Source of the DNA: Hormoscilla sp.
GTDB taxonomy: Bacteria > Cyanobacteriota > Cyanobacteriia > Cyanobacteriales > Desertifilaceae
Direction: 5' to 3'
Length of the DNA: 64,000 nucleotides
Assembly (NCBI GenBank): GCA_051439505.1
Contig: JBFRWI010000100.1
Coordinates: 69,424-133,423, forward strand
Part shown: piece by piece, positions 41,301-64,000 of the stretch
How the letters are laid out: each line of letters begins with the position of its first letter
Numbering within the stretch: position 1 is the stretch's first letter
Notes under the pieces: model-generated
What the model was told of the DNA's origin: nothing
Seen by the model: the letters and a program-made list of their open reading frames with translations, nothing else
Database searches by the model: none
Made by a program: the position numbers and the translations under genes

Positions 41301-41471
41301 CAAAACGGAGGGCGTCACCTCTTCGGTCGCATCAGTCAGGGTCCCGTCGGGGTTGAGGAAAAAAATCCCTACCGGTTCCCCGTCCACTTCGCCGAAGGAG
41401 ACGGGACTGATCTCAGGACTGTCTCTCCATCCTAGAGTGTCATCAGTCAGTTCTATTTCTATCGGATCCAT
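38307..41471 (-). CDS. Vanadium-haloperoxidase-family protein fused to SGNH/GDSL hydrolase, cadherin/Ig-like domain and RTX Ca-binding repeats
   Basis: KVFYDYVRP, YVSGHS, SRLYGGIH; FGDSLSDTG...WDNIHPT; INVLENDSDP..DSFEYTVTDG; GGxGxD nonapeptides. Confidence 0.88.
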   Translation of the reverse strand: MDPIEIELTDDTLGWRDSPEISPVSFGEVDGEPVGIFFLNPDGTLTDATEEVTPSVLWDEAVHETVRKVVGPTIASRAYAMVHTASFDAWAAYDPEALGTQLGDDLQRPAEENTPENKTEAMSYAAYRVLEDLFPTEVDLFNSVMEQLGLDPENDSTDTTTPAGIGNVSAQALLDFRRNDGSNQLGDLNDGLPYSDYTGYEPVNPPQGEEIVDPNRWQPLLVPLRDPDGVVQQSLTPQWGLVTPFGLESGDQFRPPAPPEFGSEEYLRMHQEVIEINANLTDEQKIIAEFWEDDAGTSFPPGRWMAFGQFVSERDDNTLDEDAQMFFILGNAVMDAGIAAWESKVFYDYVRPITAIEALFGGETIEAWGGPEQGTVELDGSEFIPYQSFERPTPPFAEYVSGHSTFSAAAAEVLQLFTGSDEFGASVTAPPGESLFEPGFIPVEPVTLTWDTFTEAADESGISRLYGGIHNQPGNEEGLILGRKVGEAVWEQAQFFISGGESESSKTLFVFGDSLSDTGNLFNLTSTIGNPIPPSPPYFEGRLSNGPVAVEIMADQLDLSFNLDSNFAWGGAKTGRDNTLDDPDLGLEFPGLLDQIDTFAEAIDSVGADSEALYVVWAGGNDFIPALGAEVPADPEVAVTNAVTNIATAVTTLADLGAETIVVPLLAPMNRTPLANFSGDVEVLADISLAFNAELSETMTSLEEDIEDVDVILVDLFAISSEVAANPQEFGFFNITDPFVLNGEIVDETANVEDFFFWDNIHPTTKGHEIYAGVLAAEIARPVASDDRIVTPQATPVTINVLENDSDPLDDPLEIADFSSSTAGGGAIILEDNGNLLYEPDPEFTGMDSFEYTVTDGEGNTDTATVSVTVTADPPPPQFVNLIRGNPGDDMLMGTQTADLILSFGGDDRINGMSGDDIIFAGPGADNVTGGMGNDLLFGGRGNDLIQGGAGDDTISGESGQDILLGGPGRDVFVLSPETAVVNRNQADVLVDFRVGEDAIGLTDGLTTDDIILESLGTNSIIRIADSNLILGMVNRTAPDELNGSFVHFDLEVF

Positions 41472-41554
41472 AATTTTCTGCTTGCTAATTGTTCATTGAG
41501 AATTGTTGATTGCCATCATAAGTAGTTTAGCCATTAGCCATTAGCCATTAGCCA

Positions 41555-41581
41555 TTAACTTCCAATGGTCAAAATGCGGCG
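41555..41581 (-). pseudogene. Duplicated last 8 codons plus stop of the TIGR03032-like gene
   Basis: RRILTIGS* matches 43748-43774. Confidence 0.8.
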
Positions 41582-41612
41582 CCATTTATTTTTTGCAGTT
41601 CCCTTAGCAGCA

Positions 41613-43664
41613 TTAGAACACTTCTCGATCGAAGGGTACGAAACTGCCATTCAAATCATCGGGTGTCATCCGGTTAACGATGCCTAAGATCCTATTATCG
41701 GAGGCAAGTCTGATGACGGTATTGGTGCCCAAGGACTCCAGCATCAAGTCAGAAGCAGTTAACCCATCTGTTAGCCCGATCGTATCAGCACCCGAGTCGA
41801 AGTCCACCAGAACATCAGCTTGGGTTCTGTTCATCACTGCTGCTAATGGGGACAGGACGAAAATATCGCTGCCCGGACCGCCCAGGAGAAGATCTCGACC
41901 AGGTCCGCCATTGATAATATCGTCTCCTGCACCTCCTTGGATGAAGTCATTTCCTCGACCTCCAAGGAGTTCGTCATTGCCCATACCGCCAGTCAGGTTG
42001 TCGGCACCGGGACCGGCAAAGATAATATCATCTCCCGACATGCTATTGATGCGATCGTCCCCGCCGAAAGAAATAATCAGATCCTTGTCAGGGGTGCCCA
42101 TCAGCATATCATCCCCTGGGTTACCCCGAATCAGATTTACAGACTGCGGTGGCGGTTCTACATCACCACCAGAAATGAAGAATTGGGCCTCTTCCCAAAC
42201 CGCCTCACCCACATTGCGTCCGAGGATTAACCCCTCTTCGTTTCCAGCAGCATTATGTATCCCACCGTACAGGCGAGAGATGCCCGAACTATTGGCTGCA
42301 TCTGTAAAGGTATCCCAAGTCAGGCTCACTGGTTCGGCAGGCGTGATACCCCGTTCAAACAGAGACTCTCCAGCGGGTGCCGTCACCGAGGCCCCAAATT
42401 CATCGCTACCCGTAAATCGCTGGAGAACTTCTGCTGCGGCAGCGCTGAAGGTGCTGTGTCCCGATACATATTCACCAAAGGGAGGAGTGGGCATCTCTAA
42501 CCGCTGGTAAGGGATGAATTGAGATCCATCTAGTTCGACAGTACCCTGTCCCGGACCGCCCCAACCTTGGATGGTTTGGCCGCCAAACAAAACTTCGATC
42601 GCCGATATCGGGCGAATATAATCGTAGAACTGTTTAGAATCCCAGGCCGCAATCCCTGCATCCATGACTGCATTCCCCAGCAGGAAGAACATCTGGACGT
42701 CTTCATCGAGGGTATTGTCGTCCCGTTCGGAAACGAACTGACCAAAACTCATCCAGCTGCCGGGAGGAAAGGATGTTCCCGGTCCATCTTCCCAGAACTC
42801 AGCAATAATTTTTTGCTCGTCGGTGAGGTTGGCGCCGATCTCGACAACTTCGGAATGCATTCTCCGGTACTCCTCGCTGCCAAACTCCGGCGGTACTGGA
42901 GGTCGGAATTGGTCCCCTGATTCTAGTGCAAAGGGAGTCACTAAGCCCCAGTGAGCCCCTAAGAACTCTTGGACTGTGCCATTGGGGTCTCGCAGAGGTT
43001 CCAGCAGCGGTTGCCAGCGGTTCGGATCGAGGATCTCTTCTCCCTGGGGAGGATTTACTGGCTCGTAACCGGTATAGTCAGAGTAGGGCAGACCATCATT
43101 GAGATCGCCTAACTGGTTGGAACCGTCCTGGTGGCGAAAGTCGAGTAATGCCTGGGCTGAGACATTGCCAATGCCTGCGGGGGTAGTAGTATCGGTAGAG
43201 TTGTCCGCAGGATCGTAGCCCAGTTGATCCATGACGCTATCGAACAAATCTACCTCTGTGGGAAACAGGTCTTCCAGTACCCGATAGGCGGCATAACTCA
43301 TCGCCTCGGTTTTGTTTTCCAGGGTATTTTCCTGGGCGGGCTGTTGCAGGTCGTCACCCAACTGAGTGGCGATCGCCTCTGGGTCGTAAGCTGTCCAGGC
43401 ATCGAAGATCGCCGTATGCATCATCCCGTAGGCGCGGGAGGAGATCGTCGGTCCTACAGCTAAATTCCGGACTGCTTGCTGGGCTGTTTCATCCCACAAA
43501 ACGGAGGGCGTCACCTCTTCGGTAGCATCAGTCAGCGTCCCGTCGGGGTTGATGTAAAAAATCCCTAGGGGTTCTCCGTTCTCAACACCTACCCAGACTG
43601 GACTAATACCAACACCGTTTATCCATCCTAGGTCGTCATTGGTGATTTCTATTATCGGATCCAT
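41613..43664 (-). CDS. Vanadium-haloperoxidase-family protein with RTX repeats
   Basis: KQFYDYIRP, YVSGHS, SRLYGGIH; RTX tail; close paralogue of 38307-41471. Confidence 0.88.
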   Translation of the reverse strand: MDPIIEITNDDLGWINGVGISPVWVGVENGEPLGIFYINPDGTLTDATEEVTPSVLWDETAQQAVRNLAVGPTISSRAYGMMHTAIFDAWTAYDPEAIATQLGDDLQQPAQENTLENKTEAMSYAAYRVLEDLFPTEVDLFDSVMDQLGYDPADNSTDTTTPAGIGNVSAQALLDFRHQDGSNQLGDLNDGLPYSDYTGYEPVNPPQGEEILDPNRWQPLLEPLRDPNGTVQEFLGAHWGLVTPFALESGDQFRPPVPPEFGSEEYRRMHSEVVEIGANLTDEQKIIAEFWEDGPGTSFPPGSWMSFGQFVSERDDNTLDEDVQMFFLLGNAVMDAGIAAWDSKQFYDYIRPISAIEVLFGGQTIQGWGGPGQGTVELDGSQFIPYQRLEMPTPPFGEYVSGHSTFSAAAAEVLQRFTGSDEFGASVTAPAGESLFERGITPAEPVSLTWDTFTDAANSSGISRLYGGIHNAAGNEEGLILGRNVGEAVWEEAQFFISGGDVEPPPQSVNLIRGNPGDDMLMGTPDKDLIISFGGDDRINSMSGDDIIFAGPGADNLTGGMGNDELLGGRGNDFIQGGAGDDIINGGPGRDLLLGGPGSDIFVLSPLAAVMNRTQADVLVDFDSGADTIGLTDGLTASDLMLESLGTNTVIRLASDNRILGIVNRMTPDDLNGSFVPFDREVF

Positions 43665-49649: not shown

Positions 49650-50951
49650 TTAAGGCTCGGGGCTGACAGGCTCGGTAATTAATTGATTAGTCACTGCCAT
49701 CACTGCGGGCGGGAGGGCGAACCCGCCTTCAGTTTTCTCCAGGAGCGATCGCCCGATCAGGGAGCTTAAGGCCCGGAGCAAGTCCTGGGGAGATGTTTCC
49801 GATAAGCTTTCCTGTAAGGCAGGCAGCTTGACGGGGCCTTCACTGAGGGCAATATGGGAGAGGATCTGCTTTTCGAGACCGGATAGGCGATCGAACAGCT
49901 CTCCAATCAAGTTACTAATATCATGAGTGAACAAAGTGGTGGCTAAAAAGTCAGTGACGTTGCCGTCAAAAACCTCTTTAATGGTGATGGCAACAAGCTT
50001 GAGCATCAAGGGATTGCCACGATAACCTTGAATTAATTTTCCCCAATTTTTCTGGCCGGACAAACCTTTTTCTTTTAAGATCGATCGGGCATCATCTGCC
50101 AAACCCTCTAATGTGAAAGAACGGACCGGGGAGGTTTCCCCTTCTAGTAAGGAAATTTGACTGAGTTTCTCCTGAGAGACGATTAACAAGCAGCTTTCAT
50201 GGGGTTCGGTGCCGATGCGTTGGAGAAATTCGCCATATTTTTCATACCCTTCTCGGTAGACCCCAGCAAGTTCACCCCTTTGCAGGAGGGACTCGGCGCG
50301 ATCGAGGATAATCAAACAGCGGCGTTGGCGGAAAAAGTCCATCAGCCAGGCCATCTGTTCCTCTACCGTTTCGGGTAATTCCGTTTCTAGCTGGCCCGAC
50401 AAGGCTGGGATTAGTAGGGCCAAAAGCTCCTCCAGAGTCGGACCGTGACGGAGCGATCGCCAGACCACATGCTGGAAGTGAGGCTGGATCTGTTGAGCTA
50501 GCTTCACAGATAGGGTGCTTTTGCCTATACCTGTCATACCCAGCAGTCCGATGAGGCGACAGCGGTCAGCAACAATCCAACTTGACAGCTGGGTCAGTTC
50601 TGCCGTGCGACCGTAGAAAACCGAGACATCCGGGGCTTTCCCCCAATCTATGCCAGTAGGGATGGGGGATGCTATATTGCTGGTGACATCAGATAGAGAG
50701 GAAGCTTGTTCTTGGTAGCGAGAGACCAGCAGCTGTTGCAGTTTTGTCAGCTTCACCGGTCCCTTGCCCTCAATCTGGAATTTTTGGTACACTTCACTCA
50801 GTCTTTTTCTGACCGCATCCGCGCTAATGTTTAGCTGTTCGGCGATCGCGGCGGTCCCTTCACCGTCCATTGCCAGAGACAGGGCCTCCAGTTCGGCGGC
50901 AGTCAGACCATGTTCGGTAGCTAAAGCTTTGAGAAACTCCTGGGAAATCAC
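49650..50951 (-). CDS. LuxR-like HTH + NB-ARC (STAND) ATPase with no C-terminal repeats
   Basis: IAEQLNISADAVRKRLSEVY; DWGKAPDVSVFYGR; GMTGIGKS; YRGNPLMLK. Confidence 0.85.
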   Translation of the reverse strand: MISQEFLKALATEHGLTAAELEALSLAMDGEGTAAIAEQLNISADAVRKRLSEVYQKFQIEGKGPVKLTKLQQLLVSRYQEQASSLSDVTSNIASPIPTGIDWGKAPDVSVFYGRTAELTQLSSWIVADRCRLIGLLGMTGIGKSTLSVKLAQQIQPHFQHVVWRSLRHGPTLEELLALLIPALSGQLETELPETVEEQMAWLMDFFRQRRCLIILDRAESLLQRGELAGVYREGYEKYGEFLQRIGTEPHESCLLIVSQEKLSQISLLEGETSPVRSFTLEGLADDARSILKEKGLSGQKNWGKLIQGYRGNPLMLKLVAITIKEVFDGNVTDFLATTLFTHDISNLIGELFDRLSGLEKQILSHIALSEGPVKLPALQESLSETSPQDLLRALSSLIGRSLLEKTEGGFALPPAVMAVTNQLITEPVSPEP

Positions 50952-51222
50952 AGTGCCACACACTCATATATACCTAATACTCCATCTTACCTCATAATCA
51001 TGAGATATTGTTGGTTCTGTCCACATTTATCTGATACTTAGGGCCCTGGGTTCATCAGTAGTTTGGCATAGTATGAGATTTTAGGGTTATTTATGGGGAT
51101 GGGTCGTGAAAAATAACTCCTCGCTCATGTGAGCTGCGTCGGATCCTTGACAAGAGCGTGCATCACCAGATGCAGCTATCAACTACTTGTGACCACACCC
51201 ATTTACGTGCCAAATGCAGATT

Positions 51223-52087
51223 TTAATAATCTTTTTTAGATAAATTATTTTTCATCAGTAAATAAGATTTTTCTGCTTGTCTTTGTCTCTCCAGTGTCAA
51301 GTCCTTCATCCTATAATTCGGTCCTTGCAATTCAGGGTTTGGGTAAATTCCAGCCGGAATAGTTTGACTATCGGCTAATATCTCTTGAGCAGTTTTTACA
51401 TAGAGATCGAACTCAAGTAAATAACTGTAGGCTTTCAAATCCCAAATCGAGTCAAATTGAAACGGATCGATGATTCTTTGGGATCTAATAATTGGTCCTG
51501 TATCGACACCTTCATCGATGTAATGGATGGTTATCCCCACAGCTTCCCTAAATTTCTTGACATCCTCGAAAATGGCAATATTTTCTATTGAATACATTCC
51601 ACGACCATAGGGTAGAATAGCAGAATGACAATTGAACAGTTGGGATTGTGTCATTTCTATCCACCACGGTTTGAGCATTTGAGTTACGCAAACAAAAATC
51701 AAAGGTGGAGAATCTTTTGGATGCTTCTATGAGCCATTCTTTTGCAGAGATGCCATTCAAATTATCTCCAATAAATATGGTTTGAGAATATCCAGTACTC
51801 GAATACGGCGCTATGCCATCACGTTCGATCATCGCCCGATCGGTCGGCTCGATGTTGGGATATAATTCTCTCAAGGCTTGATTAATTTCATCTGTAAAAT
51901 GTTTTTGACCAGAATACTGAGCGTGGAAAGCATTTCTGGCTTGAAGCACCGTTTCTGGTTGAACTTTTTCCTTGACGATCACTCCCTGGAAGTCGGGCAA
52001 ATCTCCAAACGCTTCAATCCATTTTGATACCAAATAAGAGCAAAGAATATTATAATCTACCAATAAGTAAAATTTCTTATGATTCAT
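51223..52087 (-). pseudogene. Formyltransferase-family gene split by a +1 frameshift
   Basis: NCHSAILPYGRG and GITIHYIDEGVDTGPII in the 3' ORF; removing one T at 51715-51718 fuses the two ORFs (EASK-DSPPLIFVC). Confidence 0.75.
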
Positions 52088-52437: not shown

Positions 52438-52586
52438 ATTTTTTGGTTAGGGATGCTAAATTTGGTAGTGAGTCACTTGTAGTGATGGAGTATGTTCTCC
52501 GGACGCCAGATCCAGCAATTCACCCATGACAATTGACAATTGTCAATTATATTCTAAAGCAACTAATAATTACTCAGGCTCCTGCA

Positions 52587-53639
52587 ATGGCAATTGACGT
52601 GCAAATCCCCAACTGGTCCAATTTACTACAACAACTCCTAGATAAGCGATCGCTCTCACGGGCCCAAGCAGAGTCCTTAATGGAGGGATGGTTAAGCGAG
52701 ACAATTCCTCAGGTACTCTCAGGAGCGATCTTAGCGGCCATCCAAGCTAAAGGTGTAGAAGCAGCAGAACTGGCGGGCATGGCCTCGGTATTGCAATCTC
52801 AATCGAAATCATACCAGACAAGTCCAAGTCCGCATTCGACCCCTGTAATAGATACCTGCGGAACGGGTGGGGATGGTGCTTCCACCTTTAATATCTCTAC
52901 AGCTGTTGCCTTTGTGGCCGCAGCAGCAGGGGTGAAAGTGGCCAAACATGGCAATCGTTCGGCATCTAGTAAGGTGGGTTCGGCGGATGTGTTGGAAGGT
53001 TTGGGGGTAAACTTGAATGCACCCACTGAGAAGGTTGTCTCCGCCCTGGATGAAGTAGGAATCACGTTTCTATTTGCCCCCGGTTGGCATCCGGCGATGA
53101 AGGCGGTAGTTCCTCTGCGGAAAACTCTGAAGGTGCGAACTGTCTTTAATCTCTTGGGTCCGCTGGTCAATCCCTTGCGCCCTACAGGTCAGGCGATCGG
53201 GGTATTCGATGGGGCGCTGGTGGAAACGATCGCCCAAGCATTGCAGCAGCTAGGAACCCAGAAGGCGATCGTCCTCCACGGACGGGAAAAACTAGATGAG
53301 GCGGGGTTAGGAGATTTAACAGATGTGGCCATATTGTCCGACGGTCGGGTACAGATAACCGCAGTCAATCCCCAGGAACTGGGTTTAACAGCAGCAAGGG
53401 TCGATGCCTTGCGAGGGGGCGAAATTAAAGACAATGTTGAGATTATGTGCAATGTGCTGCAAGGCAAGGGTACGGCGGCCCAGCAGGATGTGGTGGCATT
53501 GAATGCATCTTTGGCCCTTCAGGTGGGTGAAGTTGTGCCACTTCAGGCTCATGCAGAGGGTGTTAAGGTGGCCAAGGATATCCTATCCAGTGGTGCGGCG
53601 TGGACCAAGTTGTCCCAGTTGGTGCAGTTTCTCCAGTAA
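52587..53639 (+). CDS. trpD: Anthranilate phosphoribosyltransferase
   Basis: [37 protein letters not shown]. Confidence 0.95.
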
Positions 53640-53850: not shown

Positions 53851-54495
53851 ATGAGTCAAGATCCTCAGAGTATTAGTTCAAACTGGGCGCACCGTCCTCC
53901 TCAGGAGGCATCAAAAGTTGAGGCAGATTACGATTTTCTGGCAGATGATTATGACAATTTGATCGAGAAGTGGGCTTATAAGGGCCATGAATTTGGGGCA
54001 GAACTTGCCAAGCGTTTTTTATCACCTGAAGATTTGATTCTAGACGCGGGTTGCGGCACAGGTCTGACTGGAGAAGTTCTGTTTGAAGGAGGGTTTAAAA
54101 ATATAGTTGGTGTTGATATATCCCAAAAATCTCTCGACAAAGCTGCACAGCGCCAGGTATATCGCGAACTTATTAAAGGTAACCTTCAAGATCCTCTTTC
54201 CTGGGATGACAACCGGTTTGATGCCGCCTACTGCATCGGTGTTCTCACCTATTTCCCAGATAGTTTTCCTTTAGGGGAATTTTGCCGCGTGACGCGCCCG
54301 GATGGATGGATTATTTTTTCCCAACGGGTTGATTTATTTGAAGAAGGCGGTCACGGAAAGCAATATGATTCAATGGAGTCCGAAGGTCTCTGGGAGAAAA
54401 AATATATGTCCCAGCCAATGCCTTACCTTCCCGGGCACTCAGAATACGGCGAGCAAATTCTAGTGTATTATCTTGTCTATCAAGTAAATCAATGA
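53851..54495 (+). CDS. Class I SAM-dependent methyltransferase
   Basis: ILDAGCGTG; GVDIS; first gene of the NRPS/PKS cluster. Confidence 0.9.
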   Translation: MSQDPQSISSNWAHRPPQEASKVEADYDFLADDYDNLIEKWAYKGHEFGAELAKRFLSPEDLILDAGCGTGLTGEVLFEGGFKNIVGVDISQKSLDKAAQRQVYRELIKGNLQDPLSWDDNRFDAAYCIGVLTYFPDSFPLGEFCRVTRPDGWIIFSQRVDLFEEGGHGKQYDSMESEGLWEKKYMSQPMPYLPGHSEYGEQILVYYLVYQVNQ

Positions 54496-54534
54496 TTTTG
54501 CCATCGCCGGACAAAATTTAGAAAGGACTCATTT

Positions 54535-57500
54535 ATGTCTGTATCAAACCTCATTATTAATGAAGTCAGGGTGCCTTGCCTCTCAGGTGATTTTCTACCC
54601 GAGAAAAACACAACTACATCACAGCTGTTCGATCGGCAAGCAGAACGAAGGCCGAATGCCACCGCCATCTGTATGGGCGACGCTGAGTTGAGCTATGGGG
54701 AACTGCGGGAACGATCGAACCGTCTGGCTCGCTTTTTGCAGTCGAGGGGATTCGGTTCCGGTCAGTTCGTGGGAATTTGCATAGATCGCAGCTGGGAAAT
54801 GGCCATCGGATTGCTCGGCATCATGAAATCTGGAGCCGCCTACGTTCCCCTAGATCCTCGCTTCCCACCGGAACGCTTGAAATTCACGATCGCCGATGCA
54901 GGGATTAAATGTATTATTTCCACAACAGATTGTGCGTCGGCAATTCCGGACTGCGATGTTGAAATTCATCAGTTAGATGCTTTAAGCGATCGCCTCGCCT
55001 CTATCGAGCGCGATACACCAGAAGTCACATTATCACCGAGTTCGCCCGCTTATCTGATCTATACCTCGGGATCGACTGGAAAACCTAAAGGCGTGATGGT
55101 ACCTCATGAAGCCTTGGTCAACTTCTTGCGATCGATGCAAATTTCTCCGGGTATTACCGAAGGCGATCGACTGCTCGCCGTCACTACCATTTCCTTCGAT
55201 ATATCCGGTCTCGAACTTTATCTGCCTTTAATCTCGGGTGCTAGCCTGCGATTGCTAAAGGATCGGGAAGCTCGAAATAGCAGCATCCTGAATCACTTCA
55301 CCGAAAGTGGCGAGATCTCGATTATGCAGGCGACGCCGACCACCTGGCAAATGATGCTAAATGGCGGTTGGAAAGGACATCGGCAGCTCAAAGCACTCGT
55401 AGGCGGGGAGGCATTTCCACCAGCTCTGGCTAAAAGAATGCTCGGGAAGTGTGGGGAAATTTGGAATATGTACGGCCCCACCGAAACCACAATTTGGTCG
55501 GCACATGCTCGGGTTACGGATACCCAAATCTCTCTGGGAACCCCCATTCACAATACCCGCATCTACGTGATGGAAGATGGGGAGATTTGTATTGGCGGAA
55601 AGGGGCTGGCATTGGGTTACAAAGACCGACCGGAATTAAATGCCGAAAAATTCCTGTATTCTCAGGTCGCAGGAGAACGCATTTATCGCACTGGCGATCT
55701 GGGTCGGATCGACGAGGGGGGCAGACTTCATTTTCTCGGTCGCATCGACCATCAGGTTAAAGTCAACGGGTACCGCATCGAAACCGGTGAAATAGAAGCG
55801 CTGATCGATGAAGATGATGGCGTTCGGCAATCTGTAGTGACCGTCAAATCCTACGGAGCGAACGATTCCAGATTGGTCGCTTATGTCATGCCAGAATTGC
55901 AAAGCACTGCAGACATGGGGGAAACGGCTGAAGGTCCCGATCGAGTCGCCCTTTGGGAAACCATTTGGAGCAACGCTCACGGCCAGGATTCCGCAGTTTA
56001 CGATCCAACTTTCAATTACGCTGGGTACAACAACAGCTTTACTGGCAAGCCCATGCCCGAAGAGCAAATGCGGGAATGGGGTCGAAATACAATTGCTCGG
56101 ATCCGAGAGCTGAATCCCAAAAACGTCTTAGAAATTGGATGTGGAACGGGGATATTGCTGTTTGCGATCGCGCCAGACACCGATCGTTACGTGGGAACAG
56201 ACATTTCTACATCTGCTCTATCCCACGTACAAGCACAGGTTGAAAAAAATCCCGAACTAGCATCGAAGGTGGCATTACATCACCGGCCCGCCCACGCTCT
56301 ACCGGATCTAGAGCCCGGAACCTTCGATACCATTATCTTGAATTCCGTCGTGCAATATTTTCCGGGGGCGGATTATCTCGAAGGAGTCATCAAAAAACTC
56401 GTCCCCTTGCTCCGGCCCGACGGCTCAATTTTTATTGGGGACGTGCGGAACCTCCTGCTCCTCGAAGCGTTCCACAAAAAGCTGTTGCAGGCCGTTACCT
56501 CCCAAGAACCGAGCCACCAGCAGGTACGGCAGTCGGTCAGAAAAGAAGAAGAACTCGTGCTGGCCCCGGAGTGGTTTTTAGCCCTGAAAAGCAAGATTCC
56601 GGCGGTTAGAGATGTCACGATCGCACCCAAGGAAGGACGCTTTGAAAACGAGTTCAACTGTTTTCGCTACGATACGACGATCTCGATCGCGCCCCCTGTA
56701 ACGGCAGAAGTAGAGTGGCATCATTGGACGCGGGAAAACTGGACGAAAACCAGATTGAGTGAGGTTCTAGAGTCCGGACCGTCAGTGCTAGCCCTGGAAG
56801 GGGTTCGCAATGCCATGCTCTCAGAATCGAGGGGCGATGCTGCTGCTTCGCCACGGCTACGCCTACGCGATCGGGCGATCGCTCCTGGGGGCTGTGTGGA
56901 TTTGGGCGCACGATACAACTACAATGTTCGTACCAGTTGGGCAAATAGCGATCGAACCGGCGCGTTCGATGTTGTTTTTCTCCAGAACGAAAACATAGTG
57001 CCTGCATTTGGACCAACCGAACTAGACTCGTCGTCCCAGAAAACGACCAATTACCCGATGTTACCCAGTTTGGCGCGACAGCTAGAGCCGCGCTTGAGGA
57101 AGCGACTGGGAGAATTCCTACCGGACTACGAGCTGCCGAAGGCATACGTGTTTCTAGACAGTTTCCCCCAGACACTCAATGGTAAAGTCGATCGGAAAAA
57201 CCTTCCCGAACCCAATCTCGGGCGACCGGTACTGGCCAACAGCTTTCAAAAGCCGCAAACGGATGAAGAGCGCCTGTTGGCTGAAATTTGGGCCGAGACG
57301 CTTCAAATCGAGGAGGTGGGAGCCACAGACAACTTTTTCGACTTAGGTGGCAGTTCGATTTTGCTCACTCAGATGCATGGTAAGATCGCAGGGCATTTTC
57401 CGGGTACCAGCATAATCGACCTATTAGAGCATCCCACCATTCGCACCCTGGCAGAGTCCTTGGCTTCCCTAGGCCATGCCAGCCCATCTCAAGGCAACGA

Positions 57501-57606
57501 TCGGATGGAAAAACGCATGACGCGAGGCAGACCAGTACAAGCCCGCCGCAACCTGCGCAAAAGTCTAAAAAATCAATTTACCGACGATGGAGATGAACGA
57601 GCATAA
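54535..57606 (+). CDS. NRPS initiation module A(Gly)-N-methyltransferase-T
   Basis: YTSGSTGKPKG; YGPTE; YRTGD; embedded LEIGCGTG/LNSVVQYFP; NGKVDR; FFDLGGSS; code read by eye DILQLGMIWK. Confidence 0.9.
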   Translation: MSVSNLIINEVRVPCLSGDFLPEKNTTTSQLFDRQAERRPNATAICMGDAELSYGELRERSNRLARFLQSRGFGSGQFVGICIDRSWEMAIGLLGIMKSGAAYVPLDPRFPPERLKFTIADAGIKCIISTTDCASAIPDCDVEIHQLDALSDRLASIERDTPEVTLSPSSPAYLIYTSGSTGKPKGVMVPHEALVNFLRSMQISPGITEGDRLLAVTTISFDISGLELYLPLISGASLRLLKDREARNSSILNHFTESGEISIMQATPTTWQMMLNGGWKGHRQLKALVGGEAFPPALAKRMLGKCGEIWNMYGPTETTIWSAHARVTDTQISLGTPIHNTRIYVMEDGEICIGGKGLALGYKDRPELNAEKFLYSQVAGERIYRTGDLGRIDEGGRLHFLGRIDHQVKVNGYRIETGEIEALIDEDDGVRQSVVTVKSYGANDSRLVAYVMPELQSTADMGETAEGPDRVALWETIWSNAHGQDSAVYDPTFNYAGYNNSFTGKPMPEEQMREWGRNTIARIRELNPKNVLEIGCGTGILLFAIAPDTDRYVGTDISTSALSHVQAQVEKNPELASKVALHHRPAHALPDLEPGTFDTIILNSVVQYFPGADYLEGVIKKLVPLLRPDGSIFIGDVRNLLLLEAFHKKLLQAVTSQEPSHQQVRQSVRKEEELVLAPEWFLALKSKIPAVRDVTIAPKEGRFENEFNCFRYDTTISIAPPVTAEVEWHHWTRENWTKTRLSEVLESGPSVLALEGVRNAMLSESRGDAAASPRLRLRDRAIAPGGCVDLGARYNYNVRTSWANSDRTGAFDVVFLQNENIVPAFGPTELDSSSQKTTNYPMLPSLARQLEPRLRKRLGEFLPDYELPKAYVFLDSFPQTLNGKVDRKNLPEPNLGRPVLANSFQKPQTDEERLLAEIWAETLQIEEVGATDNFFDLGGSSILLTQMHGKIAGHFPGTSIIDLLEHPTIRTLAESLASLGHASPSQGNDRMEKRMTRGRPVQARRNLRKSLKNQFTDDGDERA
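56831..56877. mobile_element. HIP1-associated small dispersed repeat inserted in frame (33 bp including duplicated GCGAT)
   Basis: 47-bp exact inverted match to 60277-60323. Confidence 0.75.
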
Positions 57607-60600
57607 CACGAGCAGCCAAATCGCCGAAACCGACATTGCTGTTATTGGCATGAGCTGCCGATTTCCAGCTGCAGAGGATCCAGAGGAATTTTGGGAAAAC
57701 TTGCGCGACGGCATCGAGTCGGTGACGTTTTTCCGCGACGAAGATCTGCTAGCCAATGGGGTCGATCCCGAACTATTGCGCCATCGGAACTACGTCAAAG
57801 CCAATCCGATCCTGAAAAATCCCCTGGAATTCGATGCTGGTTTCTTCGGGATTCCCCCCTTGGAAGCCGAAATGCTCGATCCCCAACAACGCATCTTCCT
57901 AGAATGTGCCTGGGAAGCGCTAGAAAGTGCGGGAACGATTCCAGGGGAAACCGATGGGATTGTGGGCATATTTGCAGGAGCGGGTATCAGCTCCTACTTG
58001 CATCGGATTTTGCCCAACAACGGCAACTTCTTTGAATCCGTTGCTAATTTTCAGATGATGCTTGGCAACGATAAGGATTATTTGCCCACGCGGGTCTCCT
58101 ATCGGCTTAACCTGACTGGACCGAGCGTCAACGTCCAAACGGCCTGTTCCACCTCCCTAGTTGCCCTGCACCTGGCTTGCCAAAGCATTCTCAACGGCGA
58201 TTGCGATGTTGCCCTAGCTGGTGGCGCATCTGTATTTCTTCCCCAGCATTGCGGGTACCTGTTCCAGTCGGGGATGATTTTCTCCCCCGACGGACATTGC
58301 CGCCCCTTTGATGCCAATGCAAAAGGCACCACCTTTGGCAGCGGGGTGGGAGTTGTGGCGTTGAAACTGCTCTCTCAGGCTTTGGAAGAAGGGGATCCCA
58401 TTCGAGCAGTAGTTAAAGGCTCGGCGATTAATAACGATGGCTCTCTGAAGGTGGGTTTTACCGCTCCTTCCGTCAGCGGTCAAGCCTCGGTAATTGCGGA
58501 GGCTATGGGCATGGCGGGAGTTTCCCCCGAATCTATTTCCTACCTGCAAGCCCACGGAACTGCTACAGAGTTAGGGGACCCGATCGAAATTAGAGCTCTG
58601 ACCCAGGCTTTTCGTACCCAGACCGATAAGAAGGGCTACTGCGCGATCGGCTCGGTGAAGAGTAATTTCGGACATCTGATTTCAGCATCTGGGGTGGCCG
58701 GGGCGATCGCCACCATCTTGGCGCTCGAAAACCAGCAAATTCCACCCAGCCTTCATTTTGAATCCCCCAACCCGACGATCGACTTTGAAAACAGTCCCTT
58801 TTTTGTCAATACCGAACTGAAAAATTGGACCACGGATGGGGGTCCGCGAATTGCTGGCGTTTCTTCTTTTGGATTGGGAGGAACCAATGCCCATGCTATC
58901 ATTGCCGAAGCACCGGCAGTTGGGAAAGAAATAGGCCGGAGCAGCAGACCGCGAGTATTGCTGACCCTTTCGGGGGAATCGGATCTAGCGGTTGTAGAAC
59001 TAGCTGCCAAGTACGCCCGCTTTTTCCAAAAACACCCCCAGGTCTCCCTACCAGATGCAGCCTATACCACACATGTAGGCAGAAAACATTTTCCGGTTCG
59101 TGCCGCCTATTCTGCCGCAGATGTCGGCGAATTGATTGGCTCCCTTGAAAGCAATAGCGCGATCGCCCTTAGCTCCAATGGGTCTGCCCAACTGGCTTTT
59201 CTATTTACCGGACAAGGAGCCCAAGAAGCGGGTATGGGCAAAAGACTGTACGAAACGGAACCCGTGTTTGAGGAGGTTTTAACTCGCTGCGACGAGGCTT
59301 TTCGCAGCAAGCGAGGTCGGTCTCTTATTGACATTATCTTTGCTGAAGACGGGAACGATTCGATCCACGCCACGGAGTTCGCTCAGCCGGGAATTTACGC
59401 GATCGAATGCGCCATTGCCGCACTGTTTATGTCTTGGGGAATTCAACCTTCTTCTGTTGCGGGTCACAGCATCGGTGAATTTGCAGCTGCCTGGACTGCT
59501 GGGGTGTTTGAGTTGGAAGAAGGTTTGAGTCTGGTTGCCGAACGGGGGCGCTTGATGCAAGAACTCCCGGTATCGGGGGGCATGGTCTGCGTTTTCGCCC
59601 CACGGGAGGTGGTCGAGGATTACTTAATTGACGGTCTTTCCATTGCCGTTGAAAACGCTCCCGATGCAGTGGTGGTATCGGGGCCGTCCGCAGCTCTAGA
59701 GGCAATGGTCCAGCAGCTTCAGGGGGATAATGTCCGTTGCAAAGAATTACAAGTTTCCCATGGCTTTCATTCCCCGCTGATGGAACCCATGCTGGCAGAA
59801 TACGAACGGTTTGCCTCACAGTTTGTCTTCCAACAGCCAGAGATACCCTTCATTTCCAACCTAACGGGTGACTTTCTGAGTTTCGATCGGCCCTTGGATG
59901 CCAGTTATTGGACGGAACATATCCGCTCGACGGTTCGGTTTCGCGAGGGGCTAAACGCCCTGGTCAGTTCGGGAGTCCAGCTGTTCCTGGAAATAGGTCC
60001 CAAACCGATTCTCTGCGGGATCGGACAAAAACAGTTTCCTGCCCTGACTTGGATACCCTCCCTGCAAAAAGGTTTGGGAAATACGGGGGATGTTTTAGAC
60101 GGTCTCGGCCAGCTCTATACCTGCGGGGTTGCCATCGACTGGAATGCCTTTCATGCTAGCGAAAACAGACTGAAAATCCCCCTGCCCACCTATGCTTTCC
60201 AACGCCAAATTTACCAGCCGGAAAAAACGATGATGCCTATAACGAGTTCTCAAGTCGATGGCAACGGCCAGACTACCGCCCGATCGCGTAGGCGTAGCCG
60301 TGGCGAAGCAGCAGCATCGCCCCATGGGGAGAAGATCGAGCGGGAATTGACGGAGACGATCGCGAAAATGATGCGCCTGGATGGCGACCAAATCGATCGC
60401 GAAGCATCCTTTATGGCCCTGGGGCTGGACTCCCTGACATTGCTCAATGTTATTTCCAGCATCGAGAAAAAATATGGTGTCACCCTTGAGGTATACCAAT
60501 TCTTTGATGAGTTGACAAACTTACAACAACTCACTGATTTCCTGATCGAAGAAGTGTCTCAACATCCATTAGAAGAATCTGTCTCGACAGCCGCAGCCGC

Positions 60601-63514
60601 ACCACCACCTATCCCGACTGCCAATGGGACCCGCGCGATCGCATCTGAACCCGTTTCCCTTCCCACAGGCTCCGAATCTACCTCACTGGAACGCATCATC
60701 GAGCAGCAACTGAGCTTGATGGCGAAGCAATTAGAGGCCATGCAGGGAAAATCAGATGCTACGACCATCCCGGCTGTCACTCTTGCTCCCAACCAAAAGC
60801 AGAACAATAGGGTTGAGAAAACAAACAAAGCAACGTCAGGCTCGTTCTCGTTTTCTGGTGGTGGTGGAAAAGGCAAAGGAAAACCACCGACGGCAACACA
60901 GCAGGCTTTTATCGATAACCTAGTGCAAGCATACTGCGATCGCACCCAGGGGTCTAAGGAGATAGCAGCGACCTACCGGAATTGCTTCGCCGATCGCCGA
61001 TCGCTGATCCGAGGTCTGCGTCCCGAACTGAAAGAACTGTTCTATCCCATTGCTGCCGAGAAAGCGAAAGGCTCCCGTATCTGGGATATTGACGGTAATG
61101 AATACATCGATATCACCATGGGATTTGGCGTTCACCTATTCGGCCACAATCGAGATTTCATTATGGATCCGATTCGCGATCGAGTGGCAACTGGAGTGCA
61201 AGTCGGCCCTCAAATGCCCCTGGCCGGAGAGGTGGCCAAATTGTTCGCCGAGGTAACGGGAAAAGAACGGGTTACTTTTTGCAACTCCGGCACGGAAGCG
61301 GTGATGACAGCCCTGCGGATCGCCCGTGCGGCCTCGGGCAAACATAAAATTGTGAAGTTTAAAGGGGCCTATCACGGTCATTTTGATGGAACTCTGGCCA
61401 TTCCCGCTGACGGTGATGAAACATTTGCCAGCCAACCGATGTTTCCAGGTACTTCCCCCAAGATGGTGGAAGACGTCATTGTGCTGGACTACGGGAAGCC
61501 AGAAAGTCTCCATGCGATCGCACAACACAAACATGAATTGGCAGCGGTCCTTGTAGAACCAGTCCAAAGTCGATTGCTGAGCCTGGCCCCCAAAGAATTT
61601 TTGCAGGAACTGCGGGTTCTGACCCATACTGAAGGCATCGCGCTGATCTTCGATGAAGTGATTCTGGGATTGAGAGCTGCTCCGGGCGGCGCACAGGAAT
61701 ACTTCGGCATTGAAGCGGATATCGCGACCTACGGGAAAGCCTTGGGCGGTGGCATGCCCATCGGAGTCATTGCTGGGAAAGCAAAATTCATGGATCGCAT
61801 CGACGGTGGCAGTTGGAAGTTCGGCGATAAATCTTTCCCGGAAACCGAACCCACCTTTTTTGCCGGCACCTTTTGCAAGCACCCCCTAGCCATGACGGCA
61901 GCAAAAGCCGTTCTGCTTCATATCAAGGAGCGAGGTGGAGCACTGCAAGGGCAACTCAACGAGTCTACGGCTCGTTTGGTTGGGGAGTTGAATCGCTATT
62001 TTCAAGCGGAAGAACTCATGCTTCGTGCCGATCGCTTCGCTTCTGTGTTCAGAATTGAATACCAAAGCGCCTTCACCGAGCTGTATCTTCCCATAGAAAT
62101 GGATCTCTTGTTCTACCTGCTCATCCACAAGGGTGTTTATATTTGGGAAGGCCGCGTCTGCTTCCTCTCTACCGCACATACCGATCGGGACATAGACGAC
62201 ATCGTGAGGCTTGTGAAAGAAAGCGTGGAAGAACTGCGTGCGGTTGGTTTTTTTTCGCAGCCCAAAAAGGCACAAAAAAAAAACCATTACTATCCGCTAA
62301 CTGAAGAGCAGCAACGCCTACTCCAGATCGCAGGAGACGAAAAAGGCTCTACCGCCTATAACGAGTCGATCTCTTTTGAGTTACAGGGACATCTCGATCT
62401 CGATCGTTTGCGTTACGCCGTCCAGACAGTAGTCGATCGGCACGATGCCCTGAGAACTTACTTTTCTGCCGATGGCTCGAACCAGATTATCGCTCCTGCG
62501 ATCGACATGGAAGTCCCATTGCGGGATTTTTCTGAAGAGGAGCCAGATGTTGCTCTGAAACAGTGGCTGGTAGCTGAAAGTCAACTCCCTTTCGATCTTT
62601 ATCGAGGGCCCCTCATCCGGGTGGCAGTTGCCAAGCTGGGAATAGAGCGCCATGTATTGAATGTCTGTACTCACCACGGGATCTCCGATGGTTGGTCTCT
62701 AGTTGTCATTTTGGAGGAAATCTGCAAAATCTATTCAGGTTCCGCCGATATCCCACCCATTCAACAATTCGCCGACTACCTCCAATGGTACGATCGCGAA
62801 TCGGTGAGCGATTCTTTTCAGGCTTCGGAAATGTTTTGGAGCGAATATCTCAACAAGGTTTCTCCCATGCACCTACCCTTTGACGGCATGGCCCCCGCAG
62901 GACCAACCTATAAGGGCGCCAGGGTATCGATGAGGGTTGAACCCGAGTTAGTCATCCCACTCAAAGAACGTGGGATGGCATGGAATGCAACCTTGTTCCA
63001 GACGATGTTGGCAGTTTACGCTCGCCAGATGCAAATATTCTGCAAGCAAGACACCGTCACCATGGGAATTTCAGTCAGCGGACGACCTGCTTCTCTGAGC
63101 GAACACTTGGTAGGTTATTGCGCGCACTTCATTCCCCTGTGCCTCGCAGAGGGTGAGAATTTAACCTGGAAAACCCAAGTGCAAAAAACCAAAACCGCAC
63201 TCATTGAGGTATTTAAGCATCAGAACGTGCCCTTGGCTCGGATCTTGAACCAACGGCCTCAATGGCAACGACAAAATCTCGTACAAGTCACATTCAATCT
63301 CGATATCGATATGGCACTTCCCGAACTGACGGGTCTGCAAACTCGGATTATTCCTCAACCCGTTACCTCAGCTCGATATGCGATCGGTCTGAATGTTCTC
63401 CCTGAAGGCGATCGCCTTCATCTCGATCTCGATTACAATGCAGATATTTTCCAAGCAGAAACTATGAAAGGGTTTCTTGCCGACTTCATGGAACTGCTTG
63501 CATCGCTGATTTAG
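57587..63514 (+). CDS. Hybrid PKS/NRPS: KS-AT-ACP-aminotransferase-condensation
   Basis: KS TACSTS/HGTAT/GHL; AT GHSIG and HGFH; ACP LGLDSL; AMT FDEV..TYGKALGGG; C HHGISDG. Confidence 0.92.
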   Translation: MEMNEHNTSSQIAETDIAVIGMSCRFPAAEDPEEFWENLRDGIESVTFFRDEDLLANGVDPELLRHRNYVKANPILKNPLEFDAGFFGIPPLEAEMLDPQQRIFLECAWEALESAGTIPGETDGIVGIFAGAGISSYLHRILPNNGNFFESVANFQMMLGNDKDYLPTRVSYRLNLTGPSVNVQTACSTSLVALHLACQSILNGDCDVALAGGASVFLPQHCGYLFQSGMIFSPDGHCRPFDANAKGTTFGSGVGVVALKLLSQALEEGDPIRAVVKGSAINNDGSLKVGFTAPSVSGQASVIAEAMGMAGVSPESISYLQAHGTATELGDPIEIRALTQAFRTQTDKKGYCAIGSVKSNFGHLISASGVAGAIATILALENQQIPPSLHFESPNPTIDFENSPFFVNTELKNWTTDGGPRIAGVSSFGLGGTNAHAIIAEAPAVGKEIGRSSRPRVLLTLSGESDLAVVELAAKYARFFQKHPQVSLPDAAYTTHVGRKHFPVRAAYSAADVGELIGSLESNSAIALSSNGSAQLAFLFTGQGAQEAGMGKRLYETEPVFEEVLTRCDEAFRSKRGRSLIDIIFAEDGNDSIHATEFAQPGIYAIECAIAALFMSWGIQPSSVAGHSIGEFAAAWTAGVFELEEGLSLVAERGRLMQELPVSGGMVCVFAPREVVEDYLIDGLSIAVENAPDAVVVSGPSAALEAMVQQLQGDNVRCKELQVSHGFHSPLMEPMLAEYERFASQFVFQQPEIPFISNLTGDFLSFDRPLDASYWTEHIRSTVRFREGLNALVSSGVQLFLEIGPKPILCGIGQKQFPALTWIPSLQKGLGNTGDVLDGLGQLYTCGVAIDWNAFHASENRLKIPLPTYAFQRQIYQPEKTMMPITSSQVDGNGQTTARSRRRSRGEAAASPHGEKIERELTETIAKMMRLDGDQIDREASFMALGLDSLTLLNVISSIEKKYGVTLEVYQFFDELTNLQQLTDFLIEEVSQHPLEESVSTAAAAPPPIPTANGTRAIASEPVSLPTGSESTSLERIIEQQLSLMAKQLEAMQGKSDATTIPAVTLAPNQKQNNRVEKTNKATSGSFSFSGGGGKGKGKPPTATQQAFIDNLVQAYCDRTQGSKEIAATYRNCFADRRSLIRGLRPELKELFYPIAAEKAKGSRIWDIDGNEYIDITMGFGVHLFGHNRDFIMDPIRDRVATGVQVGPQMPLAGEVAKLFAEVTGKERVTFCNSGTEAVMTALRIARAASGKHKIVKFKGAYHGHFDGTLAIPADGDETFASQPMFPGTSPKMVEDVIVLDYGKPESLHAIAQHKHELAAVLVEPVQSRLLSLAPKEFLQELRVLTHTEGIALIFDEVILGLRAAPGGAQEYFGIEADIATYGKALGGGMPIGVIAGKAKFMDRIDGGSWKFGDKSFPETEPTFFAGTFCKHPLAMTAAKAVLLHIKERGGALQGQLNESTARLVGELNRYFQAEELMLRADRFASVFRIEYQSAFTELYLPIEMDLLFYLLIHKGVYIWEGRVCFLSTAHTDRDIDDIVRLVKESVEELRAVGFFSQPKKAQKKNHYYPLTEEQQRLLQIAGDEKGSTAYNESISFELQGHLDLDRLRYAVQTVVDRHDALRTYFSADGSNQIIAPAIDMEVPLRDFSEEEPDVALKQWLVAESQLPFDLYRGPLIRVAVAKLGIERHVLNVCTHHGISDGWSLVVILEEICKIYSGSADIPPIQQFADYLQWYDRESVSDSFQASEMFWSEYLNKVSPMHLPFDGMAPAGPTYKGARVSMRVEPELVIPLKERGMAWNATLFQTMLAVYARQMQIFCKQDTVTMGISVSGRPASLSEHLVGYCAHFIPLCLAEGENLTWKTQVQKTKTALIEVFKHQNVPLARILNQRPQWQRQNLVQVTFNLDIDMALPELTGLQTRIIPQPVTSARYAIGLNVLPEGDRLHLDLDYNADIFQAETMKGFLADFMELLASLI
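60277..60323. mobile_element. Second, inverted copy of the HIP1-associated small repeat, in frame in the AT-ACP linker
   Basis: Encodes part of ARSRRRSRGEAAASP. Confidence 0.75.
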
Positions 63515-64000
63515 GGCTAATGCTAGTGCTCTGTCCATGTTAAAATGAGAGATAAATATAGAGTGAAAGTATGGCTCTCATGATTTTACCCAAAATCTGT
63601 TCTCAACTGGACGAGTATCTGCCATATAGAGTTGATAAATATAGCATCAACTCTGTTGATGCTAATCTTTGCTTGATGTCTGCAAAATTATGAAAGTAGC
63701 TCGCTACTTTTATAATTTTGTATTAAGCTGTTGCGCCTCGAAAATGCATATTTTACTATCGGATCAAATCGTGGTAACTCTCGTTAAATAAGCGTTTCCC
63801 AGAGAATAAAAGTTTTCAAAGATGCAAGTTGAATGCATCTCAGATAAGCTGATATACACCAATAAAAAAAATGAGGGCGTTGCACATTTTTGGGATGATA
63901 GCAGCCAATTTTTCAACTTTGCTAATGGCTAATTGCTAATTGAAAAGAGTAAAGCTATCTATTCATGACTATAAATGACGCTCTCAATTAACCATTGACA

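Follow-up and report, generated by a model that had tools for sequence, protein, structure and literature searches.

Background

Modules that join nonribosomal peptide synthetase and polyketide synthase parts (NRPS/PKS) and have a built-in aminotransferase are described in MycA of the mycosubtilin system and in McyE and NdaF, where the layout is KS-(AT)-ACP-AMT-C (ketosynthase, acyltransferase, acyl carrier protein, aminotransferase and condensation domain). The signature DTACSSS marks a KS that receives a fatty-acyl or polyketide chain, and the terminal C domain of McyE condenses onto the adenylation-methyltransferase-thiolation (A-MT-T) module of McyA. Glycine modules feed a KS in malyngamide-, oxazolomycin- and colibactin-type systems, and in these the glycine nitrogen is acylated or formylated. 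Here we compare with these systems a three-gene NRPS/PKS cassette lying at one end of a 64,000-nucleotide stretch (the window) of Hormoscilla sp. contig JBFRWI010000100.1, which we refer to as contig C100 of genome G000.

Two further lines of earlier work bear on the cassette. Emeriamine and the emericedins are of fungal origin. PMC11154567 identifies emeriamine as aminocarnitine, and in literature drawn mostly from outside subscription journals we found nothing joining 'aminocarnitine' with 'biosynthetic gene cluster'. In Thermus dnaX and Shigella mxiE slippage at a run of 9-11 A near a stop codon gives two length variants (passages of PMC1088944), and slippage at an A run in Citrobacter tssM1 yields two lengths that are both required (PMC4256274).

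Our reading, to which we assign a probability of about 0.4, is that the cassette is complete and releases an N-methylated 3,4-diaminobutyrate, likeliest an aminocarnitine-type acid, through its C domain, with a run of A residues ahead of that domain leading to enzymes with and without it.

Results

Domain layout and predicted chemistry

The cassette consists of three ORFs (open reading frames) on the forward strand at 53851-54495 (214 aa), 54535-57606 (1023 aa) and 57587-63514 (1975 aa), the second and third of which overlap (57587 versus 57606). Domains were called with Pfam and catalytic motifs were checked separately. The first ORF matches a class I methyltransferase (MT), the second AMP-binding, an embedded MT and PP-binding, and the third KS, AT, PP-binding, Aminotran_3 and Condensation; zero Pfam matches to ketoreductase (KR), thioesterase (TE) or reductase families were found in the three ORFs. 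An initial annotation made from the sequence alone had proposed this three-gene unit, the absence of KR, TE and reductase, and the lack of any further ORF in the last ~490 bp, and all of this stands, there being no separate ORF of at least 100 aa after the PKS gene. Intact motifs include VQTACSTS, QAHGT and KSNFGHL in the KS, GHSIG and HGFHS in the AT, LGLDSL in the ACP, IFDEV and ATYGK in the AMT and HHGISDG in the C domain, and a gene of the phosphopantetheinyl transferase (PPTase) family is present in the host genome.

The second ORF is a starter NRPS with an A domain (~54628-55899), a TioS-type N-methyltransferase (nMT) insert (~55912-57084) and a T domain (~57274-57456). Its A pocket, DILQLGMIWK, was re-read as in the initial annotation, as was the C-domain HHGISDG, and is conserved among the copies of the cassette barring M/F-adjacent variation in one. 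The nearest solved pockets to DILQLG.IWK are those of AB3403 and DhbF (4zxh, 5u89), which we take to be glycine-activating, in keeping with the glycine code read earlier. The embedded nMT matches TioS (5wmm, E 3e-40) and forms an insertion of ~390 aa before the A9 motif. As the A-nMT-T part is fused to the KS in Okeania, Dapis and Hydrocoleum, the direction of transfer from T to KS is fixed. Elsewhere in the host genome a further NRPS (contig C198, 7714-14742) also starts with A-nMT-T, and no C-bearing NRPS gene is among the upstream ORFs listed there.

In the third ORF the KS (~57629-58906) carries the signature GNDKD/VQTACSTS with Cys-His-His intact, and is 59% identical to a KS preceded by a T domain. 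Most KSs from other AMT modules, in which DTACSSS was seen wherever the motif was inspected, share ~40-45% identity with it. Its top PDB/KS matches include 4oqj, 4wky, ClbC and ClbK, presumably all NRPS-fed. We assign the cassette KS by these features to the NRPS-fed (hybrid) elongating type. The AT (~59198-60130) has the HGFH/HAFH motif that indicates malonyl loading, and is followed by the ACP (~60344-60544). Directly after the ACP stands the AMT (~60899-62236), of class III pyridoxal phosphate (PLP) type with catalytic Asp and Lys, whose best PDB match is MycA (6kfm, E 2e-134), just as the MycA-type assignment of the initial annotation would have it. The glycine-type pocket, hybrid KS and MycA-type AMT together support, by inference, a tethered N-methylated 3,4-diaminobutanoyl unit as the predicted intermediate.

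A run of A residues between the AMT and C domains

The AMT-C linker contains a run of ten A (62274-62283, forward strand) 7 nt 5' of the C1 motif of the C domain (~62285-63508). A run of 9 or 10 A lies 6-7 nt before C1 in 7/7 copies of the cassette and is the sole run of at least 9 A in each of the seven cassette regions. Neither this run nor the reading frame of its Okeania/Dapis counterparts appears in the initial annotation, and the two alter the likely mode of expression. The gene is in frame across the run in the window and in copy L013 (both ten A) and in copy L011 (nine A). At the four Okeania/Dapis loci the AMT frame stops a few codons after the ten-A run and the C domain continues from the run in the -1 frame; 13/13 Okeania, Dapis and Hydrocoleum protein records that span the junction end at the identical place. 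The first ATG, GTG or TTG in the Okeania/Dapis C frame comes at codon 31 or 77, past the conserved C1 motif.

The out-of-frame C domain is nevertheless under purifying selection. We compared copies of relatives (including those of genomes G042, G515 and G543, with L011/L013 as the in-frame pair), and the ratio of nonsynonymous to synonymous substitution rates (dN/dS) was 0.26, 0.20 and 0.24 for the out-of-frame C domain versus 0.22 for the in-frame pair, with 0.17-0.29 over the first 72 C codons. These values rule out the C domain as a pseudogene in Okeania/Dapis, except in the decayed copy of G536.

Such runs are rare in coding DNA of the host. Among 2,701 G000 ORFs of at least 250 aa, nine-A runs were observed 8 times against 38 expected from synonymous shuffling and ten-A runs twice against 13 expected, the other ten-A run sitting at codon 3 of a gene. 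In control AMT ends the longest A run was at most 7 in 28/28 that could be scored (4/32 were not located, and only some of the controls have a C domain next). No Lys run before C1 was seen by eye in unrelated AMT-C proteins (107/120 located).

One extra A would open the C frame in Dapis and close the frame in the window. The heptamers A_AAA_AAA and A_AAA_AAC are present at the run, and both are among the slippery heptamers listed in a passage of PMC3711429. No stimulatory hairpin 3' of the run rose above shuffled sequences in 4/4 cases (z -0.7 to +1.0), and polymerase slippage therefore fits slightly better than ribosomal shifting.

Several observations weigh against a recoding site. The first 27 C codons give noisy dN/dS values (0.37, 0.15 and 0.64, from 6-9 differences per pair), and the C domain evolves faster than the AMT (0.06-0.09) and the KS (0.11-0.15). 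The window gene is itself in frame, such that slippage at its run would only truncate the product. Taken together we consider it quite probable, from the sequences compared, that the run is a slippage or -1 frameshift site giving enzymes with and without the C domain, and we suggest more tentatively that both enzyme lengths may matter functionally.

The terminal C domain

In a C-domain tree built from 78 of 132 sequences the cassette C domains form their own long-branch clade (support 1.0) inside the C domains that follow an AMT. The HHxxxDG motif is intact in 8/8 cassette C sequences checked. The cassette C domains have Leu at a position where 94/115 controls have Trp, and Gln or Glu where 92/115 controls have a hydrophobic residue. 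A passage of PMC8097023 describes residues W2579 and L2580 of the FscG C3 domain as contacting the acceptor peptidyl carrier protein, and by motif the two changed positions appear to map onto these. As part of the acceptor-carrier patch would then be lost, the C domain likely releases its product rather than elongating it, and the changed patch weakly favours release. The argument is a weak one because ~18% of control post-AMT C domains are also without the Trp.

Close to the cassette clade in the C tree lies P0237, a KS-AT-ACP-AMT-C protein of 1989 aa with a hybrid KS and a terminal C domain bearing HQ for HH, which may be a distant analogue.

The stand-alone methyltransferase

The stand-alone class I S-adenosylmethionine-dependent MT (53851-54495, forward strand) lies directly upstream of the NRPS gene in 7/7 cassette copies. 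METTL27/WBSCR27 is its best match by sequence, profile and fold (7qcb; 26% identity in the fold match). It is 71-79% identical among the cassette copies and at most 46% identical outside them, and with its dN/dS of 0.08-0.15 it appears to be an obligatory partner in the cassette.

METTL27-like MTs recur elsewhere in cyanobacteria (loci L049-L077) beside genes for CDP-alcohol phosphatidyltransferase/NTP transferase, EgtB-like, TauD, PhyH, alanine dehydrogenase and PKS proteins, and in one case (L059) the MT is fused to alanine dehydrogenase. In this survey 55/78 neighbouring ORFs were scanned, and the small-molecule neighbours are only suggestive as a lead to substrates of the family.

Completeness and distribution of the cassette

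Six further cyanobacterial genomes contain the cassette (G041, G043, G042, G515, G543 and, in a decayed form, G536), and the carriers include named genomes of the marine cyanobacteria Okeania, Dapis and Hydrocoleum. The gene order MT, A-nMT-T, KS-AT-ACP-AMT, C is common to all six. The neighbours differ by eye among the six loci and include a desuccinylase-like gene with EamA, glutamate synthase and the atp operon. No downstream NRPS/PKS module was found in the six other cassette genomes and a downstream A-T acceptor is absent in 7/7 loci.

In protein searches A-nMT-T orthologues are 64-67% identical before near-full-length matches drop to ~43% or less, and AMT-C orthologues are 68-71% identical. 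A genome scan gave 3 true cassette loci among 18 returned, and the C domain was found at 60% identity or above in 6/144 genomes of the family of the Dapis genome G042. There were no cassette orthologues among 40 relatives of the window genome (best full-length match 42%), and 400 further genomes from the order gave no MT above 41%. Nor was there a full-length or close relative among 19 loci from a metagenome scan, and the 161 matching records of a plasmid collection were all under 60%. A search of representative proteins with the C domain was uninformative, its top 150 being the query and multi-module NRPSs.

To the left of the cassette is trpD (anthranilate phosphoribosyltransferase; 52533-53639, forward strand), which is kept in congeners without the cassette. 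To the right, the window end is also the end of C100, and the final ~135 bp (63867-64000), outside the cassette, are a repeat dispersed genome-wide in dozens of copies, many of them at contig ends. Read depth is similar across trpD and the cassette in sequencing runs X1 and X2 (perhaps source-sample reads); over the repeat it is far above single copy. In four congeners (L136-L139 in G002, G004, G003 and G001) the slot after trpD holds, by eye, a putative endonuclease and a C5 DNA methyltransferase, and in three of the four this restriction-modification pair is followed by a sensor gene. The same sensor gene starts 526 nt into contig C20 of the host, and one end of C20 shares a 50-nt overlap with the end of the window. 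The repeat gives nine more contigs such an overlap, which leaves the join of C100 and C20 not unique, and C20 was picked as the next contig because of the synteny with the congeners. Beyond the 64 kb, contig C20 gave no NRPS/PKS matches.

Because the same unit stands in six genomes amid unrelated neighbours, and because of the congener slot and the synteny to C20, we interpret the three genes as a complete, patchily distributed insertion ending at its C domain. This agrees with the initial annotation, which had treated the unit as minimal and stand-alone. It counts against our reading as a whole that the carrier genomes are related to each other and are all drafts or metagenome-assembled genomes.

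The EamA transporter gene adjoins only the L011 and L013 copies and was rejected as a member of the cassette. The G536 copy (L097) is decaying: parts of its A-nMT-T and PKS genes are disrupted or absent, and its C domain contains a transposase-like ORF, but its ten-A run is kept. The assembly of the L013 copy is interrupted by N gaps and tandem short repeats in and around the PKS gene.

Discussion

Proposed pathway and alternatives

In the pathway we propose, glycine is very likely loaded and methylated on the T domain, and the starter would then likely pass to the hybrid KS for extension with malonyl and PLP-dependent amination on the ACP. The C domain would probably free the product without a carrier-bound acceptor. 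More tentatively, the embedded and stand-alone MTs may jointly bring the glycyl nitrogen to the di- or trimethyl state; this would block the spontaneous formation of a gamma-lactam and so make the C domain necessary. Recoding at the A run would yield mostly C-bearing enzyme in the window host and mostly C-less enzyme in Okeania/Dapis, the C domain likely being shared within KS/AMT dimers. We favour an aminocarnitine-type acid as the final product, at somewhat less than even odds, because it accounts both for a second MT that is obligatory and for the selection acting on the C domain. A bacterial route to aminocarnitine, an inhibitor of fatty-acid oxidation, that combines a two-module NRPS/PKS, a betaine starter supplied by a METTL27-like enzyme and poly-A slippage setting the share of chains with a release domain is, as a whole, a rather doubtful proposition.

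The assignment of the second MT to this pathway meets two objections. In fold comparisons RebM, UbiG and MitM score like phosphatidylethanolamine N-methyltransferase, leaving N- and O-methylation unseparated, and animal METTL27 is described in a passage of PMC9240639 as having no known substrate.

An alternative that we regard as possible, if on the unlikely side, is that glycine receives a single methyl group and the amino-thioester closes to 4-amino-1-methylpyrrolidin-2-one, either by itself or with the help of the C domain, with the stand-alone MT decorating the 4-amino group. Embedded backbone nMTs usually methylate once, which counts for this lactam and against the open-chain acid, and gamma-amino thioesters cyclise readily. 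The lack of a TE and the C-less enzyme encoded by the unrecoded Okeania/Dapis gene are in line with it, and cyclisation needs no acceptor patch. Spontaneous release should however let the C domain decay, yet purifying selection is equal in and out of frame, and ring closure might already set in at the beta-keto stage, ahead of amination. For a monomethyl intermediate that cyclises by itself a C domain would be all but superfluous, and the selection on that domain therefore speaks for the open-chain acid.

It is unlikely that the A run serves phase variation by replication slippage, or is an accident that the gene tolerates, rather than a means of programmed expression. Poly-A tracts are also hypermutable according to passages of PMC1088944 and PMC3711429, the window copy is in frame, and three Lys codons fairly easily make such a run. 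The 13/13 records of Okeania, Dapis and Hydrocoleum nonetheless share one out-of-frame state, no indel at the run is listed in the four sequencing runs compared, the rest of the genome is purged of such runs, and a permanently silent C domain would not hold dN/dS near 0.2.

Less likely again is a conjugate, in which the C domain uses a free amine or alcohol of the cell, such as a polyamine, an amino acid or a lipid head group, as the acceptor for the diaminobutanoyl unit. Terminal C domains that accept free amines exist, and the intact HHxxxDG, the descent from amide-forming post-AMT C domains and the changed carrier-docking residues would suit such a role. At none of the seven loci, however, does the cassette have a conserved neighbour that would supply an acceptor.

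We think it very unlikely that the C domain, in the manner of McyE and McyA, joins the unit on the ACP to a second sarcosyl-T, which would give either a cationic oligomer or, as a cyclic dipeptide, a diazepanedione. The domain does belong to an elongating post-AMT clade, and the cassette has no aminoacyl carrier besides its A-nMT-T, yet all aligned cassette copies have other residues at the acceptor-carrier positions of helix 1 and an oligomer would be without a release enzyme.

Finally, although the window ends at a contig break that ten contigs overlap without a unique join, a fragment of a larger cluster or a partner for a distant NRPS in trans is most improbable, the former being rejected by the six other loci without a downstream module and the synteny to C20, the latter finding no support in the host NRPS inventory or in G041, whose genome has three C domains in total, two besides that of the cassette.

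Other features of the window

Counts of promoters and terminators in the region are at chance level. A perfect 10-pair inverted repeat (63642-63664), 128 nt past the stop of the PKS gene, is a possible terminator, and such sites occur in the region in chance number.

Upstream of trpD, a formyltransferase-like gene (51223-52087, reverse strand) appears as two overlapping ORFs with the Pfam match on the second. Contigs from X1 are one base short at 51719, and those from X1 and X3 skip 216 nt at 51789-52006, for which reasons we judge this gene to be variable or mis-assembled. It is not at the same place in congeners. These ORFs stand beside none of the six other cassette copies and were rejected as a starter-masking enzyme. 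Further upstream, a LuxR-type helix-turn-helix and NB-ARC protein (49650-50963, reverse strand) has no match at the locus in four congeners. The region 38307-43664 (reverse strand) encodes two tandem similar proteins that by eye are vanadium haloperoxidase/PAP2-like with glycine-rich calcium-binding repeats, the longer of them with an apparent extra GDSL-like part.

Significance

At less than 10 kb the cassette is small and complete, and its presence in named Okeania, Dapis and Hydrocoleum genomes makes every step directly testable. Routine reversed-phase screens for natural products would likely overlook the predicted product, a small polar cation. The cassette also gives the orphan METTL27/WBSCR27 family a link to a defined pathway. 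If the role of the A run is confirmed, the Okeania/Dapis annotation omits the full-length enzyme, and recoding may keep active other NRPS/PKS genes whose annotation shows a frameshift or a split at poly-A. Should the proposal be true, it would be the first recoding-controlled NRPS/PKS and would provide the first substrate class for the METTL27 family.

Comparison with known systems

No description of this cluster was recognised in the literature searched, which covers few subscription journals and includes passages of PMC7825088 and PMC12184294, and the initial annotation had likewise not recognised it. A case of slippage in an NRPS/PKS gene was not found either in the literature searched, including passages of PMC8092579, PMC1088944, PMC3711429 and PMC5009743.

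With the genes for METTL27/WBSCR27 the cassette MT shares its family, and differs in being tied to a defined small-molecule pathway. With emeriamine and the emericedins the predicted product would share its skeleton if the nitrogen is trimethylated. Among glycine/nMT modules, MgiJ of malyngamide, presumably an N-methyl-glycine module, has a near-identical pocket and the same nMT insertion at 41% identity to the cassette A-nMT-T, and oxazolomycin- and colibactin-type KSs are among the top matches of the cassette KS. Compared with such modules feeding a hybrid KS, the cassette starter is without a C or formyl domain.

The resemblance to the dnaX/mxiE/tssM1 slippage genes lies in a run of at least nine A that is under-represented in the genome and, in G042, G515 and G543, in a start-less second ORF under purifying selection, the window copy being in frame. 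Truncating and frame-restoring arrangements both occur in that family, as they would among the cassette copies. The cassette differs in that its run lies in a gene for an NRPS/PKS megasynthase and would switch a catalytic domain.

The closest overall likeness is to MycA, McyE and NdaF, which share with the cassette the class III PLP aminotransferase after the ACP and a C domain that carries VGYCxH and belongs to the post-AMT clade. In contrast to MycA and McyE, the cassette KS takes over from an amino-acid T domain rather than receiving an acyl chain, no A-T follows the C domain, and the entire pathway comprises two modules; the A run of its AMT-C junction is absent from the 28 control AMT ends. 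The cassette would work like a MycA/McyE amine-transfer module fed by a glycine/nMT starter, minus the acyl-primed KS and the downstream A-T.

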